Assembly (NCBI GenBank): GCA_024654535.1
Contig: JANLHL010000016.1
Location: 32,626-96,625 of the forward strand
Length of the DNA: 64,000 nt
Origin: Candidatus Roizmanbacteria bacterium
Lineage (GTDB): Bacteria > Patescibacteriota > Microgenomatia > UBA1406
Direction of reading: 5' to 3'
The notes under the pieces are model-generated. The model searched no databases, was not told where the DNA came from, and worked only from the letters and a program-made list of their open reading frames with translations. This document shows positions 5,374-32,832 of the stretch, one piece after another (the first letter of the stretch is position 1; each line of letters begins with the position of its first letter). The position numbers and the translations under genes were made by a program.

Positions 5374-6310
5374 GGATCAAAAAGGAGCGCTTTCCAAGAT
5401 GGTTGATACTGGAAGAATCATTTACAATACACCACTAGCACCGTTAACGAGTATAAAGATTGGCGGTAGTGCAGATGCGCTTATATATGCACATAGCGAA
5501 CATGAAATTGCCCAGGTAGTTGGCTACGCAAAAAATGAGCAAATACCACTCTATATTTTAGGTGGCGGCTCAAACATTGTGTTTTCTGACGAAGGATACA
5601 GAGGTATCGTATTAAAGCTTACCGCTGGTAAAGAGCTAGTTGAACGTGACACGAGAACCTGTCGGATCACTTTTTCATCTGGATATATATCTCACTTGGC
5701 GTCTGTTCGAGCTGTACAAAATGGTTGTGGAGGATTTGAAGGAATGTATGGATTGCCAGGGACTATAGGCGGAGCGCTCTACATGAATTCAAAGTGGCCC
5801 GCAGGTCACTTCACGACGGCTGATAGACTCGTTTCTATTTTGTACATGGCTGAAGACGGTATAACAACAACGCTTACAAAGGAAGAACTTATGTTTTCCT
5901 ATGGATTTAGTATGTTGCAAAATCGATCTGGGATAGTCCTTTCGGCCACATTTGAGTTTGAACTCGAAGATCCGAAGAATATTCAACATAAGTGTGATTT
6001 AGTTATGAATTATCGTCAGACAACACAGCCCATAGGAGTACACACAGCAGGCTGTGTATTCAAGAATATATCCCTCGAAGAAATGGAGCATGCTCATCTT
6101 CCAACGCGTTCTGCAGGTTATTTTATAGATAAGTGTGGTTTAAAGGGTGAACGAAAAAATGGCTTGGTCATTTCCGATATACATGCAAATTTCTTTATAA
6201 ACGAGTCGGGCGCAACAGCAAAAGATTTCATATACTTAAAGGAGAAAGTGAAAGACAGGGTATATAAAAAATTTAATGTGTTATTGCGAGAAGAAGTATT
6301 AGTAGTTTAA
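5366..6310 (+). CDS. murB: UDP-N-acetylenolpyruvoylglucosamine reductase
   Basis: FAD-binding PCMH-type N-terminus (TSIKIGGSADALIY, ILGGGSNIV) and MurB C-terminal domain; ATG at 5366 preferred to the TTG at 5357. Confidence 0.85.
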   Translation: MNKDQKGALSKMVDTGRIIYNTPLAPLTSIKIGGSADALIYAHSEHEIAQVVGYAKNEQIPLYILGGGSNIVFSDEGYRGIVLKLTAGKELVERDTRTCRITFSSGYISHLASVRAVQNGCGGFEGMYGLPGTIGGALYMNSKWPAGHFTTADRLVSILYMAEDGITTTLTKEELMFSYGFSMLQNRSGIVLSATFEFELEDPKNIQHKCDLVMNYRQTTQPIGVHTAGCVFKNISLEEMEHAHLPTRSAGYFIDKCGLKGERKNGLVISDIHANFFINESGATAKDFIYLKEKVKDRVYKKFNVLLREEVLVV

Positions 6311-6321
6311 AGTTAGGAAAA

Positions 6322-7641
6322 ATGTTTTATGTCATAAATGGAGGAGCAAAATTAAAGGGAGAGGTTGAAGTTTCAGGTGCTAAGAATGTAGCACTAAAAA
6401 TGATTGTTGCAGCACTCCTTTTAAAAGGTATGTCGAGAATAGAAAATGTGCCAAAGATAAGCGATGTTATTTCGCTCATAGATATTATTAACAGACTTGG
6501 AGGTCATGCCACATTTGTTGATAAAAATGTTGTTGAAGTTGAAAATACGCTTACTCACAGTGCTGTTTCTATTGCGGATGCTACTCGTACTCGAGTATCT
6601 TTTTTGCTGATAGCACCACTTTTGTATACCTTTAAAAAAGTTACTATACCAAACCCTGGGGGATGTCGTTTGGGTGCTCGACCTGTCGATAGGCTTGTCG
6701 AGAGTCTACGTACCCTTGGTGCAGAAATAAACTATGATTCCGACGATGGTTGCTATCATGCTTCATATACATCTTTACATTGCGGCACGATAACATTCGA
6801 AAAAAAGACGCATACCGGAACAGAGCTCGCTATTATGGCAAGCGCTTGTATAGAAGGTGAAACTATTATACAGAACAGTGCACTTGAGCCTGAAATAGAT
6901 GAACTTATTTATTTTTTTAATCTTGCAGGAGCTAAGGTGTTTCGTCGGGGCGACGATATCGTAGTAAATGGTAAAGATACACTCACATCTGTCCATGCCA
7001 CTGTTTCTCCGGATAGAAATGAAGCTATTTCATTTTTAGTGCTCTCAGCTCTAACAAATGGATCGGTCGGTGTACGAGGCGTGCAGAAAAAGACAATAAA
7101 AACTTTTTTAACGTATGTTGAGAAAGCAGATCTAGTCTATGAAGAGAAATCAGATGTATCACGTATAAAAAAAAGAGGGATGATACAGCCGACTAATATT
7201 GTTACTGCACCACACCCCGGGTTTATGACTGATTGGCAGCCACTATGGGCAATTCTGATGACGCAGGCACACGGAGTAAGCACTATTCATGAAACAGTTT
7301 TTGAAGATAGATTTGGCTATGTGAACGAGCTCAATAAGTTTGGTGCCCATCTTGCATTTTGGGATCCAAAACAATCGAATACAGCGGCAATATACCAATT
7401 TGAAACAAACGAACAAAGCGATCTATCAAAGCAAGCTATACGTATTAGTGGCCCTACCAAATTGCATAATGCTTCAGCTCGAATGACCGATTTACGGGCA
7501 GGTGCATGTTTAGTCCTCGCTGCACTATTAGCAGAAGGAAAGAGCGTTATCAGTGGAGCTGAACAGATAGAGCGTGGGTATGAACAGCTGCTACACAAGC
7601 TTCGGACTATCGGTGCTTCAATAGATAAGATCGAAGACTAA
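6322..7641 (+). CDS. murA: UDP-N-acetylglucosamine 1-carboxyvinyltransferase
   Basis: 439 aa; EPSP-synthase-fold; active-site loop PGGCRLGARPVD; AGGA 7 nt upstream of the ATG. Confidence 0.9.
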   Translation: MFYVINGGAKLKGEVEVSGAKNVALKMIVAALLLKGMSRIENVPKISDVISLIDIINRLGGHATFVDKNVVEVENTLTHSAVSIADATRTRVSFLLIAPLLYTFKKVTIPNPGGCRLGARPVDRLVESLRTLGAEINYDSDDGCYHASYTSLHCGTITFEKKTHTGTELAIMASACIEGETIIQNSALEPEIDELIYFFNLAGAKVFRRGDDIVVNGKDTLTSVHATVSPDRNEAISFLVLSALTNGSVGVRGVQKKTIKTFLTYVEKADLVYEEKSDVSRIKKRGMIQPTNIVTAPHPGFMTDWQPLWAILMTQAHGVSTIHETVFEDRFGYVNELNKFGAHLAFWDPKQSNTAAIYQFETNEQSDLSKQAIRISGPTKLHNASARMTDLRAGACLVLAALLAEGKSVISGAEQIERGYEQLLHKLRTIGASIDKIED

Positions 7642-7684
7642 GCTCGTCTCTTGCTTTTTTCACGCATTTACTCAATAATGTGAT

Positions 7685-8293
7685 ATGCATATGCAAAGGG
7701 TATTTTTATTGTGTAAGAAAACAATCCTATGGGTAAGTATGTTTGCATTACTAACAGTTGTACAATTTTCAGTAGTGCTTGCGACGTATTCATATGTACA
7801 CAAGAGCTCGGTAGTCATGTCTGCGTTATTTCTTCGTACTGGGGATGGATACAACAAACAAAAGAGCGCACTCATCTTGGGAGAAGAAACGGGACCTGGA
7901 TCGACTGATGCACGCAAAGCTATCATCCAAGATTTTATACAGAGATATAACCCTAATTCACCACTGTTAGCGTATATAGATACTATGATGAGTGCTTCGG
8001 ATAAATATAATTTACATTATGGACTATTGCCAGCAATTGCTATGGTTGAATCTGGGTTGTGTCGGAAAATACCTGAATATTCATATAACTGTTGGGGGTG
8101 GGGTATTTATGGAAAAAATGTTATACGGTTTAGTTCGTACAACAATGCTATCGAGACTGTCGCAAAGGGTTTGGGAGAACGCTATGTACAGCAAGGATTA
8201 TCAACGCCTGAAGACATAGTCCGTAAGTACAATCCGACAAACCATAACGATTGGTCAGGTTCTGTTCGGTATTTTTTGAATATATTTGAATAA
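7685..8293 (+). CDS. Membrane-anchored glucosaminidase/lysozyme-like cell-wall hydrolase
   Basis: 202 aa; N-terminal TM; AMVESGLC...NCWGWGIYG...FSSYNNAIETVAKGL pattern resembles the mannosyl-glycoprotein endo-beta-N-acetylglucosaminidase domain. Confidence 0.5.
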   Translation: MHMQRVFLLCKKTILWVSMFALLTVVQFSVVLATYSYVHKSSVVMSALFLRTGDGYNKQKSALILGEETGPGSTDARKAIIQDFIQRYNPNSPLLAYIDTMMSASDKYNLHYGLLPAIAMVESGLCRKIPEYSYNCWGWGIYGKNVIRFSSYNNAIETVAKGLGERYVQQGLSTPEDIVRKYNPTNHNDWSGSVRYFLNIFE

Positions 8294-25137: not shown

Positions 25138-25209
25138 GCCTCTGTAGCTTAACGGATAGAGTAGCGGTCTTCGGAACCGCTGGTAGAGGTTCGATTCCTC
25201 TCAGAGGCA
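25138..25209 (+). tRNA. tRNA-Arg (anticodon TCG)
   Basis: Acceptor GCCTCTG/CAGAGGC, anticodon loop CT-TCG-GA, T-loop GGTTCGATTCC, discriminator A; TGCTATAAT at 25115-25123. Confidence 0.9.
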
Positions 25210-25276
25210 CAAGGGAATTTAAAGTTGAAAATTAAAAATTTAGAATTTGAAACAGCGCACTGTTTAATACAAAAAC

Positions 25277-26860
25277 ATGGGAATTTCACAGTTTACGCGA
25301 TCGCTAATCGACGAAACCCAGCGCGTCAGCACAGAGGCCGTGCAGGATGAGGGCGATTTTATTGAAGTTTCTAAAACAGTTTCTTTCTTTGCAATTGCGT
25401 ACGAAAAAATTCGAAACGTAATTGAATTTAAAGATGACCACATTATTCGTCGTAATGCAATAAATAGAATTGTACGCAGACGGCTTGCTTTTAATCCATC
25501 CTTAACTAACGAAAGCCTATCAATTGCCAAAGAGATAGTATGGGCAGGGTATGTGTCTAGTAATAGAATTCCTGAGCAGAAAATAGACCGTCTGGACAAA
25601 ATAATTCGATGGTATATCGGTCTTAGAAATGAGATAGTCAAAGCACAAACATCGAGTCGACGTTCGTACTATATACAGTTCGTATATGATTTGCTAGTTT
25701 CACAAATCGAAGAATTGTTTGCTGAAAAAGAGTTTAGTATTCGTAAATTTTTTACCTTTTATATTTATCAAGTGCTTAATCCACAGATTGAGATTCAAGG
25801 ACTTGATGAGTCTGAAAAGAATCTCTATTTTTATATAGCAACCGAGAAGGTACTTTTAAAAAGTGATACGCCATATTTGCGTTTTCACTTAATGAAACTT
25901 TTATCTGAGCAGCTGCTTCGTGTTGCGCCTGACTCATTTAGTGAACACGTGGAGCAATTTAAACGCGCATTTTCGTATATAGACAGCAAAATAGAGCAGC
26001 CGATCAATCAAAAAGTTCTCCAGTATTTACGCAATCAACGTCCCGCGTTTCTTATTTTTCAGGAATTTATTATGCGTCATCAGGGGAAACTTGCAGAAAT
26101 CATGGATGACCCTGTGAAGTTCAAGGGATCAATTGAAGCAATTTGCCGAGATAAGTATGAGAACGCAAAAGAAAAATTGAGAAGAGCTGGATTTAGAAGT
26201 ATTATCTATATTTTCCTAACAAAAATGTTGTTTGTACTCGCCGCAGAATACCCGCTTATGTTGCGGCTTGGGGAAAAAATAGACTATATGACGTTAGGCA
26301 TAAATGCGCTGTTCCCTGTACTTCTTATGGTTTTATTTGTTGGGTTGGTTGAAGTACCAGATGATGAAAATACCGCTCGCATTTATGAAAAAATAAATGC
26401 ATTTGTTTACGGTGAGAAAATGCAAATAGCAGTCTTTCGAGAGAGAAAGAAAGCAAAACGTGGTTTCATAGCTCAGATTTTGTTTTGGTTATTCTACGTT
26501 GTAACATTTGGTACAACGTTTTATTCGATAGATCTCGTTTTAGATATGCTGAACTTCCAGCTGATGAGTAAGGCTATATTCTTCTTTTTTGTAACCGCTG
26601 TTAGTTTCTTTGGTTACAGAGTGCGTCAAATTGCCAAGGAATATATAATAAAAGAAAAAGATTCTGTACTAACCCCTGTCTATGATTTTTTTATGATTCC
26701 ACTTATTTCAGTAGGAAAATGGCTTAGTAGCGAAATATCCAAGATAAACGTACTTATATTTATATTCGATTTCCTTATTGAAGCTCCGTTTAAAGTGCTC
26801 TTTGAGGTAATAGAGGAGTGGATTGGCTTTTTGAAGCATCGGAAAGAGGAAATGGTATAA
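25277..26860 (+). CDS. Hypothetical polytopic membrane protein
   Basis: 527 aa; soluble N-terminal half, several TM helices in the C-terminal half; no motif recognised. Confidence 0.5.
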   Translation: MGISQFTRSLIDETQRVSTEAVQDEGDFIEVSKTVSFFAIAYEKIRNVIEFKDDHIIRRNAINRIVRRRLAFNPSLTNESLSIAKEIVWAGYVSSNRIPEQKIDRLDKIIRWYIGLRNEIVKAQTSSRRSYYIQFVYDLLVSQIEELFAEKEFSIRKFFTFYIYQVLNPQIEIQGLDESEKNLYFYIATEKVLLKSDTPYLRFHLMKLLSEQLLRVAPDSFSEHVEQFKRAFSYIDSKIEQPINQKVLQYLRNQRPAFLIFQEFIMRHQGKLAEIMDDPVKFKGSIEAICRDKYENAKEKLRRAGFRSIIYIFLTKMLFVLAAEYPLMLRLGEKIDYMTLGINALFPVLLMVLFVGLVEVPDDENTARIYEKINAFVYGEKMQIAVFRERKKAKRGFIAQILFWLFYVVTFGTTFYSIDLVLDMLNFQLMSKAIFFFFVTAVSFFGYRVRQIAKEYIIKEKDSVLTPVYDFFMIPLISVGKWLSSEISKINVLIFIFDFLIEAPFKVLFEVIEEWIGFLKHRKEEMV

Positions 26861-26861
26861 T
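26831..26861 (+). promoter_or_regulatory. Promoter of the T-box leader (TTGAAG ... TGGTATAAT)
   Basis: TTGAAG 26831-26836; extended -10 TGGTATAAT 26853-26861, overlapping the stop of the upstream gene. Confidence 0.55.
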
Positions 26862-26867
26862 TAACTA

Positions 26868-27092
26868 TTACATCCGTTATTAAAGAGAGTCGCGCCTCTT
26901 GAATCGTAAGATACGGATCGTGCAAAATACACGACGGAATAGTGCCCGTAATAGCACGAAGCTCTTGTCACCAAATCGGTAAACAGAGAGAGCGTAAGGT
27001 TCTATCGGCAACGGTGGAATAAAGCACAGTGGTACCACGGCAAAGCCGTCTGTGTTTGTCTAGAAAACTAGGCAGACATAGGCGGCTTTTTT
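26868..27092 (+). promoter_or_regulatory. T-box riboswitch leader (tRNA-sensing transcription attenuator)
   Basis: Canonical antiterminator: A1 CACAG(27025-29)/CUGUG(27050-54), 7-nt bulge UGGUACC (27030-36), A2 ACGG/CCGU, loop CAAAG; competing 19-bp terminator 27045-27063/27068-27086 plus U6. Stem I and the specifier could not be assigned by eye. Confidence 0.8.
27045..27092 (+). terminator. Intrinsic terminator of the T-box expression platform
   Basis: 19-bp stem (4 G-U pairs), AAAA loop, TTTTTT at 27087-27092; 5' arm overlaps the antiterminator 3' strands. Confidence 0.8.
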
Positions 27093-27106
27093 AGTTGGGG
27101 AAAAAT

Positions 27107-27676
27107 ATGAATATTGAACAAAAAGATATACAGTATGTAGTGGTCGATCAAACGCATTTTGGGCTCCTTGCCCAAGCAAGTGCACTTATTGGTTCGTATG
27201 CAGAAAAGGGTCTTATGCTCGAACAGACTGAAGAAGCTTTAGCGAGGATGTCGCAAGAAGGGTCACTTGTGGTTGCACTTTTATCTGAAAACGGCAATCG
27301 GCATGTTGTGGGAAGTATTGCTATAACGACACAGTGGCCAGACGGAAAGCGAGAGCTGGGTGCGTGGGCAGTGCATGAAGAATTACGACGCCATGGTATT
27401 GGTATACAGCTTCTAGAGGCACTCGCAGTGCATCTTAGTGGTACGCGAGAAGGGTTACAACAAGTGATAGCATTTGCCAATAATAACTCTGGGCCAATAT
27501 TTGAAAGTCTTGGAGCTACTCCACTACCACATGCTAAAATGCATCCAGATGCATTTGTTCCGTGTCAATCGTGTCATTGCGATAAAGTGTGCCTCGCTCC
27601 TGGCCAAATGTGTGTCGATACTATATTTAATCTATCGCCAGTCATGCAGGAGCTTTCAGAAGGGTATAATAAATGA
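27107..27676 (+). CDS. GNAT N-acetyltransferase, ArgA/short-NAGS-like, with a Cys-rich C-terminal tail
   Basis: 189 aa from ATG 27107; pattern LMLEQTEEALARM...VGSIAI...AVHEELRRHGIGIQLLEAL resembles amino-acid N-acetyltransferase GNAT domains; tail CQSCHCDKVC...C. Confidence 0.65.
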   Translation: MNIEQKDIQYVVVDQTHFGLLAQASALIGSYAEKGLMLEQTEEALARMSQEGSLVVALLSENGNRHVVGSIAITTQWPDGKRELGAWAVHEELRRHGIGIQLLEALAVHLSGTREGLQQVIAFANNNSGPIFESLGATPLPHAKMHPDAFVPCQSCHCDKVCLAPGQMCVDTIFNLSPVMQELSEGYNK

Positions 27677-27695: not shown

Positions 27696-28796
27696 ATGAA
27701 TTACATTGAAAAACTAATAGCCATACAGTCTGTGTCGGGTAGTGAACAAAAGATCCAGGAATATATAGTCAATGAATTAAAAAAGTTTGGTATAGTACCG
27801 CAGAAAATAGGCGAAAATGTTGTTGCTAAAATAACGGGGAAGAACAATAAAAAAGCACTTCTTTTTAATGCTCACGTAGACACAGTACCGGAGGGAAATA
27901 GGAAACTATGGAAAGCCGACCCATTTGTACCAACGGTACGAGGTGACAAAGTCTATGGTCTTGGTGCCAGCGATGAAAAGGGAGGTGTTGCAAGTCTTCT
28001 TTTACTCGCGAAGACGCTGGTCACTTCAATACCAGCGTGTGATGTATGGTTTCATTTTGTTGTGTACGAAGAGTTAGACGGCTCAGGAACGAGAGAAACT
28101 ATGCGGTGGTTTATGAAACAGTACGGGAATGCATATGCGAGTATGGCTGGCATATTAGTTGAGCCAACTGGGCTTGAAGAGATTCAAATAGGCCACAAGG
28201 GAAACATTTTTTTGAAACTGACGTCATATGGTGATAGCGGACATGGTTCACGACCTGAATTGGTTAAGAATCATGCAGTATTTGTCATGTATGAAGCATT
28301 TAAAAAGTTAAAAAAACTTGAAAAAAAGTGGAGCGTTTATAAAGACAATATACTTGGTAGTCCAAGTATTGCTTTGGCAACAAGCATGCATGCGGGCGAT
28401 GAACACGCACCGAATAAATTTCCCGATACGTGCAGCTCTACCGTAGATATCCGTACTACTCCTGCCATGCATGATATAGCTTTACAGCAAGTAAATAAGG
28501 CACTACGTGGTTTGGGTGTTTCAGTAGATACGATGTACGCTCCAGCCTCATATGGGAGAACTTTCGAAACAGATCCACTGGTCAAAGTGTCACGGACCGT
28601 ATTTTCAAACGCTGCAATTACTGTATCAGCCGGATCAACAGATCAGTGTTTTTTTACAGATGTGGGTATAGCGGCAATCATTATAGGACCAGGTGAGAAA
28701 GAATGTATGCATATACCAAACGAATATTGTATTTTGGAAAAGATCCAGCAAGCTTCCGGTGGGTATTATCAGATAGTACAAGCGTGGGGAAAATAG
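27696..28796 (+). CDS. M20 family metallopeptidase/deacylase (ArgE/DapE-like)
   Basis: 366 aa from ATG 27696 (the ORF-track 5' extension overlaps the GNAT gene); metal-ligand motifs AHVDTVP, GASDEKGG, YEELDGSG. Confidence 0.8.
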   Translation: MNYIEKLIAIQSVSGSEQKIQEYIVNELKKFGIVPQKIGENVVAKITGKNNKKALLFNAHVDTVPEGNRKLWKADPFVPTVRGDKVYGLGASDEKGGVASLLLLAKTLVTSIPACDVWFHFVVYEELDGSGTRETMRWFMKQYGNAYASMAGILVEPTGLEEIQIGHKGNIFLKLTSYGDSGHGSRPELVKNHAVFVMYEAFKKLKKLEKKWSVYKDNILGSPSIALATSMHAGDEHAPNKFPDTCSSTVDIRTTPAMHDIALQQVNKALRGLGVSVDTMYAPASYGRTFETDPLVKVSRTVFSNAAITVSAGSTDQCFFTDVGIAAIIIGPGEKECMHIPNEYCILEKIQQASGGYYQIVQAWGK

Positions 28797-28838: not shown

Positions 28839-29657
28839 ATGCTTGCGACATTTATCATAGGATTTCGTGAATTTCTAGAGGCATTTCTGATAGCGGGAGT
28901 GTTTTTGGGTATGTCTAGAAAACTGAAGCTCAAAAAAGAATTTGAGATTGGTCTTGCTGTAGCGGTTGGTATTTGTATATCGCTTACGCTGGTTGTTGCT
29001 ATGTTTTTCTTTAGCGAACAAGCTCGTTCTGTATTTAGTCAAAGGAATACAGAGCTTCTAGAAAGCTACCTCATGATTTTTTCGGGATTCTTTATAGCTT
29101 ATGTCATTTTTTCGCTTCATTCACTATTTCACAAACACAACGGTGGCACTATATTGCAGGCACACAAAAAACTCCAGGCGCAGGCTTTTGATATGACGCT
29201 GTTTACGACCATTGTTTTTTTGATTCTGCGAGAAGGTGTTGAAATAGCACTTTTTACAGCGAGTACTTCGCTATTTTCTCAATTTTCACAAAACGTACTC
29301 GGACTGTGTATTGCTTTTATATCAGCGGCGCTTGTGGGGATGGGCACATTTGCTGCCTATATAAAAATACCAATCGGCAAAATATTTAGAGTAACTGAGT
29401 ATATGATAGTGCTTTTGGGAGCTTCTATGGTGCAAAATGGCATCACAGAATTACTTGAGCACCAGTGGGGAATAAATATAGAAAATATATTTTCATTTGG
29501 GTGGCATTTTTTACCAGGTAAAGAAACAATTGCAGGCCACTTTTTACAAAGCTTTCTTGGTATTGATAGTGCTATGAGTTTACCGAGACTTGTAATAATG
29601 GTTACATATATAGGTGTCGTGTATGTACTGTTTTTACGAAAAAAGCTGACTAGTTAG
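28839..29657 (+). CDS. FTR1/EfeU-family high-affinity iron permease
   Basis: 272 aa, about 7 TM; two REXXE motifs (REFLE, REGVE). Confidence 0.75.
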   Translation: MLATFIIGFREFLEAFLIAGVFLGMSRKLKLKKEFEIGLAVAVGICISLTLVVAMFFFSEQARSVFSQRNTELLESYLMIFSGFFIAYVIFSLHSLFHKHNGGTILQAHKKLQAQAFDMTLFTTIVFLILREGVEIALFTASTSLFSQFSQNVLGLCIAFISAALVGMGTFAAYIKIPIGKIFRVTEYMIVLLGASMVQNGITELLEHQWGINIENIFSFGWHFLPGKETIAGHFLQSFLGIDSAMSLPRLVIMVTYIGVVYVLFLRKKLTS

Positions 29658-29675
29658 AAAATTTACATATTTTTT

Positions 29676-29963
29676 ATGACAACAGATTCAATATTTCGGG
29701 CAAGTAAGAAAATCACAAAGGATGGTTTTGGATCGTGCGTGGTTTATTACATGAAGCCAAATACCGTAGAACAAAAACATTTTCATGATTGCACAGAGGT
29801 ACTCTATATAGTGAAAGGTAGTTGCAAAACCCATACACAAGGTAATGTATACCTATATAAGAAAGGTCAAGTGCATCAAGTAATAAATGACTCGAACGAA
29901 GAGCTTGTATTTGTGTGTCTGACAATCCCGCCAGAGACCGAAAAAAACACGCACTATGTTTAG
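29676..29963 (+). CDS. Cupin domain protein
   Basis: 95 aa; single cupin barrel pattern (HFHDCTEVLYIVKG...G..H.V.N). Confidence 0.6.
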   Translation: MTTDSIFRASKKITKDGFGSCVVYYMKPNTVEQKHFHDCTEVLYIVKGSCKTHTQGNVYLYKKGQVHQVINDSNEELVFVCLTIPPETEKNTHYV

Positions 29964-31998: not shown

Positions 31999-32832
31999 AT
32001 GGAAGCTAATGACGTTAGTGTAAATCTACAGATAAAAAAGTGTATAAACTTACTTAAAATTATCTTAAAGGATGATTTGCTCGGTTTTTATTTGTATGGT
32101 TCTTTACTTTTCGGCGGACTTCAAAAATATAGCGATATAGATTTATTTGCTATTTCAAAGAGAGAAGCTACCAGGAGTGAAAAAGCACAATTAGAAAAAA
32201 CTTTACTGAATATTTCAGGAATTTACGCAGTAAGTAAAGACCAGAAACCAATCGAACTTACGGTTGTTGTTCGATCTGATATTTACCCTTGGCAATATCC
32301 GCCTAAATTTGATTTTCTCTATGGAGATTGGCTTCGTGGTGAATTTGAAGCTGGAAATATAGAACCTTGGCACTCTAAAGTTTTGCCTAATCTTGCTTTA
32401 GTAATAACCCAGCTTTTGCTTTCAAACAGAGTATTATTTGGCCCAAGTCCAAATCAACTTCTTGCGGCTGTTCCATACAAAGATTTTTTTATTGCAACTA
32501 CCTCAGAAATTGATAGCTTGATGGCAGATCTTAACAACGATACTCGCAATGTCTTATTAACACTTGCAAGGATATGGTATACAGTTGAAACAGATACAAT
32601 AGCTTCTAAGTCTACAGCTGCAGCGTGGGCAATTGATAAATTAACTGATAAATACAAGCCTCTGATGCAGAGAGCTCGAGCTATTTATTTAGGAATAGAA
32701 CAAGAGCACTGGGGCGATATGTCAACGCAGCTGCAACCGTGTGCAGATTATATTGTGAAGAAAATCAGAGAACAAACGTCGCACTTAAATACTTATGATT
32801 ATCAAAACAGAACTATCTCGTTGGCCAAATAA
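31999..32832 (+). CDS. aadA: Aminoglycoside nucleotidyltransferase, ANT(3'')/AadA family
   Basis: 277 aa; NTase motif YLYGSLLFGGLQKYSDIDLF; C-terminal NVLLTLARIWYTVETDTIASKSTAAAWA...ARAIYLG closely parallels AadA (NVVLTLSRIWYSAVTGKIAPKDVAADWA). Confidence 0.8.
   Translation: MEANDVSVNLQIKKCINLLKIILKDDLLGFYLYGSLLFGGLQKYSDIDLFAISKREATRSEKAQLEKTLLNISGIYAVSKDQKPIELTVVVRSDIYPWQYPPKFDFLYGDWLRGEFEAGNIEPWHSKVLPNLALVITQLLLSNRVLFGPSPNQLLAAVPYKDFFIATTSEIDSLMADLNNDTRNVLLTLARIWYTVETDTIASKSTAAAWAIDKLTDKYKPLMQRARAIYLGIEQEHWGDMSTQLQPCADYIVKKIREQTSHLNTYDYQNRTISLAK

Follow-up and report, generated by a model that had tools for sequence, protein, structure and literature searches.

T-box riboswitches of class I, as modelled by Rfam family RF00230 and exemplified by the leaders of Bacillus subtilis tyrS and glyQS, carry a 7-nt UGGNACC bulge between two short helices, A1 and A2, of an antiterminator that competes with an intrinsic terminator. 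They further contain a Stem III with purine flanks, a Stem IIA/B pseudoknot with an F-box-like CCGUAA and a specifier consisting of a codon followed by a purine, and they control amino-acid-related genes including aminoacyl-tRNA synthetases. All of these features recur in a leader RNA upstream of a GNAT acetyltransferase gene and an M20 deacylase gene in a 64,000-nt stretch of Candidatus Roizmanbacteria DNA (hereinafter the window; coordinates are window positions unless another locus is named), the synthetase being argS in sister operons. The host belongs to the Microgenomates of the candidate phyla radiation (CPR) and not to the Bacillota. Unlike the class I leaders, the window leader has no AG bulge and no distal loop in Stem I, which together form the double T-loop platform for the tRNA elbow. 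Moreover, its specifier lies in a terminal loop instead of an internal loop, its Stem II has no S-turn, and it contains an extra linker hairpin.

Stem I of the window leader is closer to that of the actinobacterial translational ileS T-boxes (M. tuberculosis, M. smegmatis and N. farcinica; PDB 6UFG), which have an ultrashort Stem I of about 30 nt without an elbow platform, a codon near the middle of the hairpin, a reliance on Stem II and the IIA/B pseudoknot, and the same discriminator core. Specifically, CGC occupies positions 17–19 of a 30-nt Stem I in the related Microgenomates locus L108, compared with codon positions 16–18 in N. farcinica ileS. The ileS specifier was reportedly placed in the terminal loop by Sherwood in 2015. 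In N. farcinica ileS, the third codon base is C18 and the next purine is A19 (PMC7583486). The ileS leaders differ from the window leader in that they sequester the Shine-Dalgarno sequence, whereas the window leader has an intrinsic terminator; in that a long Stem II clamps the codon–anticodon duplex through its S-turn, whereas the window Stem II is a 4–5-bp hairpin with an A-rich loop; and in that they serve isoleucine and ileS, whereas the window leader serves arginine and GNAT-M20 (argS in some relatives) and has the extra linker hairpin. With the arginine T-boxes of TBDB, whose entries come from RF00230 or from a model trained on Actinobacteria (PMC7778990), the Microgenomates leaders share a specifier ending in C or A and, in sister lineages, an argS target.

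We conclude that this region is very probably a T-box riboswitch specific for arginine, which regulates the GNAT-M20 operon through transcription attenuation. The switch most likely turns the operon on when arginine tRNA is uncharged, and its arginine specificity can be stated with good confidence. The window leader belongs to a known kind of regulator, the T-box, in a structural variant that escapes current models. It was compared with related leaders, named here by locus (L numbers), which make up 11 types from the Microgenomates (Roizman-, Woese- and Levybacteria and others).

Architecture of the leader

The promoter and the RNA elements, all on the + strand, are as follows.

26831–26861, +: promoter region, read from the sequence; weak −35-like TTGAAG (26831–26836), 19-nt spacer and extended −10 element TGGTATAAT (26853–26861)
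26868–27092, +: T-box leader RNA, about 225 nt long, which begins at the predicted transcription start and ends with the U-tract of the terminator (RF00230 match, covariance model R1, fold z-score)
26872–26918, +: ultrashort Stem I (helix tabulation, covariation, RF00230 alignment)
26872–26877/26913–26918, +: Stem I basal helix AUCCGU/ACGGAU
26878–26882 and 26901–26902, +: K-turn-like internal loop of Stem I, UAUUA on the 5′ side and GA on the 3′ side
26883–26887/26896–26900, +: Stem I upper helix AAGAG/CUCUU with an 8-nt terminal loop
26888–26895, +: specifier loop AGUCGCGC, with CGC (Arg) at 26891–26893 and then the purine G26894
26903–26912, +: insertion AUCGUAAGAU in the 3′ part of Stem I, lineage-specific and variable in sequence among Roizmanbacteria leaders
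26919–26933, +: miniature Stem II, CGUG/CACG with the A-rich loop CAAAAUA (helix tabulation)
26934–26957, +: Stem IIA/B pseudoknot (RF00230 posterior, covariation)
26934–26937/26946–26949, +: IIA helix ACGG/CCGU, with the F-box-like CCGUAA
26942–26945/26954–26957, +: IIB helix, loop GUGC paired with GCAC
26961–26993, +: extra hairpin specific to this class, in the linker that joins IIA/B to Stem III (RNAfold)
26996–27024, +: Stem III, UUCUAUCG-GCAA-CGGUGGAA at 27000–27019 (8 bp, GNRA loop), flanked by the purines AAGG (26996–26999) and AAAG (27021–27024)
27025–27054, +: antiterminator, consisting of A1, bulge and A2 (sequence, RF00230, helix tabulation, folding energy)
27025–27029/27050–27054, +: A1 helix CACAG/CUGUG
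27030–27036, +: 7-nt T-box bulge UGGUACC, of which UGGU is complementary to ACCA-3′ of an uncharged tRNA
within 27025–27054, +: A2 ACGGC-AAA-GCCGU, 5 bp with loop AAA
27044–27092, +: intrinsic terminator, 20-bp hairpin 27044–27063/27068–27087 with loop AAAA, then U6 at 27087–27092 (terminator scan)

The element TGGTATAAT fits the extended −10 pattern TGnTATAAT and overlaps the end of an upstream 527-aa open reading frame (ORF; stop codon 26858–26860). A −10-like element is kept at the same position in orthologous leaders. A consensus promoter scan found nothing at 26831–26861, because the spacer is 19 nt long. Across lineages, promoters lie 25–45 nt upstream of Stem I, with clear TTGACA/TATAAT-like elements in related leaders, and there is thus no room for a hidden long Stem I. 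Downstream of the leader, a GGGG ribosome-binding site (27096–27099) precedes the ATG of the GNAT gene at 27107.

At its gathering score of 93 bits, RF00230 has no match in the window. A permissive search of 26700–27200 (501 nt) gives a full-length alignment at 26870–27056 with E = 1e-4 and 29.1 bits, 64 below the gathering score. The T-box sequence, A1, A2 and Stem IIA/F-box (ACGG...CCGUAA) are aligned with high posterior, only 6 nt cover 74 Stem I positions of the model, and about 40 nt between IIA/B and Stem III form an insertion relative to it. The score is low because Stem I is a 5-bp hairpin without an elbow platform and Stem II a 4–5-bp hairpin with an A-rich loop. In other words, the leader is canonical in its discriminator half but not in its decoding half. 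Covariance model R1, which we used to align 13 leaders, finds a single copy in the window at 221.6 bits, and the leader folds with z = −5.6 relative to shuffled sequence.

The antiterminator 3′ strand (27045–27054) lies inside the 5′ arm of the terminator, and the two helices are mutually exclusive. The folding energies are −34.4 kcal/mol for the terminator and −9.3 kcal/mol for the antiterminator, which is the classical asymmetry of a T-box. A1 varies among leaders (CACAG/CUGUG, AAAGG/CCUUU and CAAGG/CCUUG), and A2 occurs in four forms. In L135, the A2 loop (L135:1600–1632) contains an insertion of about 26 nt that folds as its own hairpin (CCUUGCAAGGAG...CUCCUUGCAAG).

These features suggest the following mechanism. 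Transcription would start about 7 nt after the extended −10 element, and the nascent leader would fold into a compact decoding module, then the linker hairpin, and then the discriminator formed by Stem III and the antiterminator with its UGGUACC bulge. The anticodon of tRNA-Arg would bind the Stem I loop. If the tRNA is uncharged, its ACCA-3′ end (with A73) would pair with UGGU in the bulge and stabilise the weak antiterminator, and RNA polymerase would read through into GNAT and M20.

The original prediction, made from the letters of the window alone, had described most of this anatomy. The extended −10 element at 26853–26861, the leader of about 225 nt, A1 and the UGGUACC bulge are present as it gave them, and its A2 of 4 bp with loop CAAAG is equivalent to the 5-bp helix with loop AAA. 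The proposed switch between T-box antiterminator and terminator is borne out by the shared strand, the energies and the covarying orthologous leaders, and a competing hairpin followed by U6 is confirmed, with 20 bp (27044–27087) in place of the 19 bp given. Its suspicion that Stem I is shortened or non-canonical agrees with the 5-bp hairpin and the 6 nt aligned to 74 model positions. The label "canonical T-box" holds for the discriminator half but not for the whole, which scores 64 bits under the gathering score and has neither a distal Stem I platform nor a Stem II S-turn; the RF00230 search that it proposed yields a full-length match at E = 1e-4 but only 29.1 of 93 bits.

The specifier loop

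The Stem I hairpin is built on at least six different helix sequences (AAGAG/CUCUU, AGGG/CCCU, GCAGA/UCUGC, CUGGA/UCCAG, GUGGA/UUCAC and GUCUAC/GUAGAC) under a conserved loop; therefore, the conservation belongs to the loop and does not reflect shared ancestry of the stem. Six Roizmanbacteria leaders have exactly the same loop. The loops of the leader types are given below, with the triplet at the specifier position set off by hyphens.

Window type: AGU-CGC-GC
L135, L108 and L140: GU-CGC-GA
L006: AUU-CGC-ACA
L133, L143 and L144: CGC-A
L136 and L138: U-CGA-G, which in L138 is the 3′ end of the internal loop directly before the basal helix
L096: AGC-A

CGC or CGA occupies the specifier position in 10 of the 11 leader types, and the base after the triplet is a purine throughout. 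The last base of the triplet is C except in L136 and L138, where it is A. T-box specifiers follow a purine rule, with a purine 3′ of the codon, and a C rule (PMC7583486), and arginine T-boxes in TBDB prefer specifiers with a 3′-C or 3′-A, as do those for leucine and serine (PMC7778990). On sequence grounds, the CGN triplets agree with both rules and with the TBDB preference for arginine. We conclude that the predicted specifier of the window leader is CGC at 26891–26893, with G26894 as the 3′ purine.

Other positions for the codon were considered and rejected. The segment 26903–26912 is absent from L009, L096, L108, L133, L135, L140, L143 and L144, and L006 has an unrelated insertion there; judged from this comparison, the insertion is not the specifier. 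A specifier in the 3′ internal loop of Stem I, read as GAA-UCG-U or CGU-A, fails because the segment is missing in L009 and other lineages. A serine (UCG) reading of the terminal loop is ruled out by L133, L143, L144 and L096. The original prediction had offered CGA-A (26957–26960) and GAA-GCU (26958–26963) as specifiers; these letters belong to the linker and to the 3′ strand of helix IIB in the pseudoknot, and neither candidate can be retained.

In L096, positions 5620–5623 read AGC-A, a serine codon, in an otherwise identical hairpin, GUCUAC-NGCA-GUAGAC. Possible explanations are a change of specificity, a mismatch that is tolerated, loss of activity in this copy and an error of assembly.

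Conservation, tRNA ligand and competing readings

The leaders were collected by several routes. L096 (Levyibacteriota) and L108 (Woesebacteria) were added by a genome-wide pattern scan and Rfam; among the matches listed, the scan returned mostly canonical T-boxes of Bacillota and Chloroflexota, and at least four matches in CPR genomes. L135, L136/137, L138/139, L140/141, L142/143 and L144 were added from contigs of M20 homologues and have a T-box upstream in each case. L133 came from a metagenome scan with the GNAT alignment, which returned only five loci. The Roizmanbacteria loci, found on contigs that encode members of the GNAT family, are syntenic, with tRNA-Arg(UCG), the 527-aa ORF, leader, GNAT and M20. 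Their orthologous leaders have 80% column identity and an invariant antiterminator, and all give the same weak full-length RF00230 match (26–36 bits); over the whole leader family the scores are 26–52 bits. Conservation of the antiterminator among orthologous leaders, which the original prediction had left as a check, is thus observed in Roizmanbacteria, and across lineages A1 and A2 covary.

Pairing is conserved throughout the leader. The ordered helices P1 and P1a (together Stem I), II, IIA, IIB, III, A1 and A2 were located by script in ten leaders, and all scored helices are fully paired; the exceptions are two mismatches in Stem IIA of L001 and, in L004, L005 and L010, the outermost pair of P1. 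Stem II of L108 (GAGAGC/GCUCU) went unscored, as strands of unequal length had been entered. In a MAFFT alignment of seven leaders, the window helices including the pseudoknot are paired in 93.1% of cells, compared with 33–51% when partners are slid. Fifteen pairs change on both sides, compared with 1–7 in the controls, and none of 500 shuffles reaches the observed values. MAFFT failed on the divergent Stem I and Stem III, for which hand tabulation and the covariance model were used. The R1 alignment of 13 leaders, which leans towards the model by construction and agrees with the hand tabulation, has 94.7% of cells paired (34–48% in the controls) and compensatory changes in 34 of 48 pairs.

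Individual helices follow the same pattern. Stem III has changed on both sides in 8 of 8 pairs, with 100% of cells paired in the 13-leader alignment, and in L006 it is entirely different (9 bp, AAAUAAUAA/UUAUUAUUU, GNRA loop). Its purine flanks are typical of T-box discriminators (PMC7583486). IIB occurs as at least seven complementary pairs (GUGC/GCAC, GUGU/GCAC, UUGC/GCAG, UUGC/GCAA, AUGAUAA/UUAUCAU, CUAA/UUAG, GUCA/UGAC and GCA/UGC); in the MAFFT alignment all its cells are paired and three of four pairs have changed on both sides. Stem II covaries as well (CGUGC/GCACG, GCUUGA/UCAAGC and CAGAU/AUCUG) under a loop that is A-rich throughout (AAAAAU, CAAAAU), and is a 4–6-bp hairpin in the window type, L108 and L140. 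The linker hairpin is kept with compensatory changes in all leaders of the class and has no counterpart in the RF00230 consensus, which aligns it as an insertion. At L001:3829–3844, and also in L003 and L130 (three independent assemblies), IIA reads ACGG/ACGA and the F-box ACGAAA, with IIB intact.

Several observations weigh against an arginine-specific transcriptional T-box. The RF00230 score is far below threshold (29 against 93 bits). The K-turn at the base of Stem I is UA/GA rather than GA/GA in the window and has the 10-nt insertion on its non-bulged strand; the region is GA/AA in L005 and L096, and canonical GA/GA in L136. The loop is formally only 4 nt (CGCA) in three lineages, seemingly too small for a codon unless the top pairs open, and one lineage, L096, has AGC at the specifier position. 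Stem IIA has two mismatches in L001-type leaders, and the window Stem II has no S-turn, which to our knowledge is conserved in T-boxes and missing only from those for glycine. The S-turn is the main substitute for the lost elbow contact in the solved short-Stem-I T-boxes (PMC7583486); L136 has an S-turn-like AGUA/GAA element in Stem II. Transcriptional T-boxes generally need a long Stem I with an interdigitated T-loop platform (PMC7583486). Finally, a tRNA-Arg whose anticodon matches CGC (GCG or ICG) was not found in the 64-kb window, and tRNA-Arg(UCG), which is present, would pair with CGC through a U34–C mismatch at the third position.

The last point bears on the identity of the ligand. The tRNA gene in question is listed here.

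25138–25210, +: tRNA-Arg(UCG), discriminator A73, 1.7 kb upstream of the leader and syntenic in all Roizmanbacteria loci

UGGU in the bulge predicts a tRNA with A73, as the original prediction had argued, and A73 is present in both tRNA-Arg genes of the window. Of the 700 arginine codons in the long ORFs of the window, 247 (35%) are CGU or CGC, and a CGY-reading tRNA-Arg should therefore exist elsewhere in the genome. From codon and discriminator, the better predicted ligand would be a tRNA-Arg that reads CGC (ACG/ICG or GCG), with tRNA-Arg(UCG) as a secondary candidate. The leader could instead be an arginine T-box that binds the syntenic tRNA-Arg(UCG) through a tolerated U34–C mismatch or superwobble. 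The original prediction had pointed to this gene, whose position, anticodon and A73 are confirmed, and which fits the leader at the discriminator and at two codon positions but not at the third. The CGA specifiers of L136 and L138 match UCG exactly, and some T-boxes accept a third-position mismatch, as reported for S. aureus glyS (PMC4574755). Nevertheless, Watson-Crick pairing at all three positions is usually required (PMC7778990), and the two CGA leaders couple their codon with UGGC in the bulge instead of UGGU, an indication that codon and discriminator shift in step with the isoacceptor. We consider tRNA-Arg(UCG) an unlikely ligand for the window leader.

The sub-threshold Rfam score, the degenerate K-turn, the truncated Stems I and II, the IIA mismatches in L001 and the AGC of L096 would also suit a decaying or non-functional T-box relic in a CPR genome, these genomes being reductive, with the terminator serving as a constitutive attenuator or as the terminator of the upstream gene. 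However, compensatory changes are kept in every helix across several candidate phyla, the loop is conserved on at least six helix sequences, and a strong terminator 14 nt before the start codon would, without antitermination, silence a conserved operon. The covariation on both alignments, together with the hand tabulation, therefore excludes chance and a relic for practical purposes, and we regard a relic as very improbable. Hardly more credible is a translational switch that sequesters the Shine-Dalgarno sequence, although all ultrashort or intermediate Stem I T-boxes described earlier are translational (PMC7583486). The alternative helix is a 20-bp GC-containing hairpin with U6 immediately after it, the same arrangement of hairpin and U-run is present in all related leaders, and the Shine-Dalgarno GGGG at 27096–27099 lies downstream of the terminator and is unpaired in both conformations.

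Two readings keep the T-box and change the amino acid. Reading the loop one base later gives GCG or GCA, alanine codons, in the window type, L108, L135, L140, L006, L133, L143, L144 and even L096, and tRNA-Ala has A73. The alanine reading is ruled out by L136 and L138, whose UCGAG loops contain no GCN; in addition, the next base is C, A, C or G, which breaks the purine rule, and no operon holds an alanine-related gene while five hold argS, so that it is implausible in the extreme. A serine T-box with the specifier in the 3′ internal loop of Stem I (GAA-UCG-U, 26901–26907), which fits the canonical GAA-codon register and has serine triplets (UCG, UCG, UCG, UCU and UCA) in five Roizmanbacteria leaders, is extremely unlikely, since the segment is missing in L009, where the rest is kept, and in L096, L108, L133, L135, L140, L143 and L144, the next base is U and no purine in four of the five cases, and UGGU predicts A73 while bacterial tRNA-Ser normally has G73 and the operons hold argS, not serS.

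With the arginine-specific switch as the preferred reading, the question arises whether the Microgenomates leaders form a class of their own. We see an even chance that they are a distinct, undescribed transcriptional T-box class without elbow contact and, in the window type, without an S-turn. Their minimal decoding module would consist of a terminal-loop codon, the A-rich miniature Stem II, whose loop may replace the S-turn, and IIA/B, and the linker hairpin may provide a new tRNA contact. Such a class would contradict the need for a long Stem I in fast tRNA capture by transcriptional T-boxes. It would also be the smallest natural transcriptional T-box, tied to an arginine-supply module of NAGS-like GNAT and M20 deacylase that has gone unrecognised and shares operons with argS across CPR lineages. 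Structural and kinetic studies have given rise to the rule that only translational T-boxes can dispense with the long Stem I and its elbow platform; a conserved, covarying family in which an ultrashort Stem I is joined to an intrinsic terminator is a natural counter-example. With about 190 nt through the antiterminator, the leader lends itself to structural studies and to engineering.

In a sample of 98 other T-box loci, the matches of R1 are canonical long-Stem-I leaders with 102–137 bits on RF00230. Weak R1 matches in Clostridia were considered as further short-Stem-I leaders and rejected: RF00230 shows a canonical long Stem I that R1 misaligns. A canonical long-Stem-I T-box (95.8 bits) and an AdoCbl-II riboswitch lie within 1.3 kb of each other on the minus strand of L027, from Saccharibacteria (5658–5847 and 6896–6982). 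CPR bacteria were thus already among the hosts of T-boxes, and the novelty lies in the compact transcriptional architecture. The searchable literature, whose coverage is incomplete, yielded no description of this architecture or of any CPR T-box. Because leaders of this family score 26–52 bits against a threshold of 93, current annotation pipelines overlook them, and the number of riboswitches in CPR/Patescibacteria has probably been underestimated.

The regulated operon and its neighbourhood

The two genes behind the leader are the following.

27107–27676, +: 189-aa GNAT acetyltransferase, first regulated gene (Pfam Acetyltransf_1)
27696–28796, +: 366-aa M20 metallo-deacylase of the ArgE/DapE family, second regulated gene (Pfam Peptidase_M20 and M20_dimer; start codon checked)

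Both proteins match proteins of a Candidatus Roizmanbacteria MAG with 100% identity. The GNAT belongs to a small family of seven clusters and is weakly NAGS-like. None of the NCBIfam cutoffs is reached (PRK07757, 41 bits against 154; PRK07922, 21 against 180; CG3035 NAGS, 20 against 280), and its sequence has no match in the PDB. Its AlphaFold model (predicted local distance difference test score 85) superimposes best on M. tuberculosis Rv2747/ArgA and the GNAT domains of NAGS, with root-mean-square deviation of 2.8–3.7 Å and 19–22% identity, and generic GNATs reach E-values nearly equal to those of the NAGS relatives in the structural comparison. A C-terminal cysteine cluster, PCxxCxC...C, is conserved in the family and absent from NAGS. 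The M20 protein scores 189.6 bits on TIGR01910, its nearest subfamily (cutoff 217.6), and reaches no ArgE or DapE equivalog; its best PDB sequence match is 3ct9, annotated "acetylornithine deacetylase", with DapE enzymes also near. The names "ArgA-like" and "ArgE/DapE-like" in the original prediction are thus correct as nearest-family labels, and no equivalog cut-off supports them as functions.

In formal terms, GNAT and M20 match steps one and five of the linear arginine pathway. The intermediate genes argB, argC and argD are in none of the operons. The M20 gene is common to all T-box-controlled operons of the class except L108, and many Microgenomates have homologues of it. M20 is followed by argS in five lineages (L135, L136/137, L138/139, L140/141 and L142/143), and the two reading frames overlap in one case (L142/143; complete Woesebacteria genome, CP066686.1). 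To have a CGN specifier ahead of an operon with argS as its last gene is standard T-box logic. ArgS was looked for in the 64-kb window, and none was found there. The operon is most likely the remnant of an ancestral Microgenomates T-box-GNAT-M20-argS operon. Judged from the regulation and the argS linkage, GNAT-M20 probably raises the supply of arginine (or ornithine) under arginine limitation, when tRNA-Arg is uncharged. The guess in the original prediction that the operon is arginine-related was right, given the CGN specifier and argS in five sister operons, and its view of the GNAT/M20 pair as an unusual T-box target is supported; no description of the two as T-box targets was found in the searchable literature. 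The regulon of GNAT, M20, argS and sometimes a B3/4 protein suggests a module for arginine homeostasis, so far uncharacterised, in organisms that are believed to be nearly devoid of amino-acid metabolism.

Operons of other lineages vary around this core. In L096, the T-box lies upstream of a GNAT-M20 pair, and the GNATs share 28% identity. In L006, the T-box is directly upstream of M20, the only gene that it regulates there; a GNAT followed by a 306-aa guanidino-modifying enzyme of the ADI/DDAH family (L006:4001–5511) lies upstream of the T-box, outside its control. In L135, the GNAT is seemingly split into two 91-aa ORFs (L135:1885–2475), possibly by a frameshift or as a pseudogene, and a standalone 234-aa B3/4-domain protein is encoded between M20 and argS in the T-box operon (L135:3682–4386). 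The B3/4 family includes the canavanyl-tRNA-Arg deacylase CtdA (PMC11477304), and the L135 protein hints at editing or quality control of tRNA-Arg in a CPR bacterium. Together with the ADI/DDAH-family gene of L006, it is a further link of these loci to arginine.

L108 has a compact Arg-type T-box (L108:5984–6230, loop GUCGCGA) before a protein of more than 588 aa (6234–7997), which has a C-terminal HAD (Hydrolase_3) domain and about 360 N-terminal aa without a domain and is unrelated to GNAT, M20 and ArgS. It is a putative further member of the arginine regulon. Homology to the 605-aa protein of L138 was considered and rejected; the latter is ArgS.

L140 has a tRNA-like minihelix (L140:1991–2027, identical in L141) between a T-box-proximal 82-aa ORF and GNAT. 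Its acceptor stem of 7 bp, GCGCUUG/CAAGCGC, is joined through 5 nt to a T-arm, GUGGG-UUCGAUU-CCCAC, and an A follows. The minihelix folds with −18.3 kcal/mol, has no D or anticodon arm and is not called by ARAGORN.

In the window, the 527-aa ORF upstream of the leader (25277–26860) has no match in Pfam or NCBIfam and seems to encode a membrane protein. In every Roizmanbacteria locus it keeps its place, in strict synteny, between tRNA-Arg(UCG) and the T-box, and the T-box promoter sits in its last codons. M20 is followed, at short distances and in the same direction, by genes for an FTR1/EfeU-like iron permease and a 95-aa cupin (28839–29963), which may share the transcript of the T-box operon; argS or an aminotransferase stands here in other lineages. 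Further downstream, 31999–32832 encodes a 277-aa protein with an AadA_C domain (E = 2e-30) and a nucleotidyltransferase domain, an ANT(3'')-like resistance-type gene in a CPR genome.

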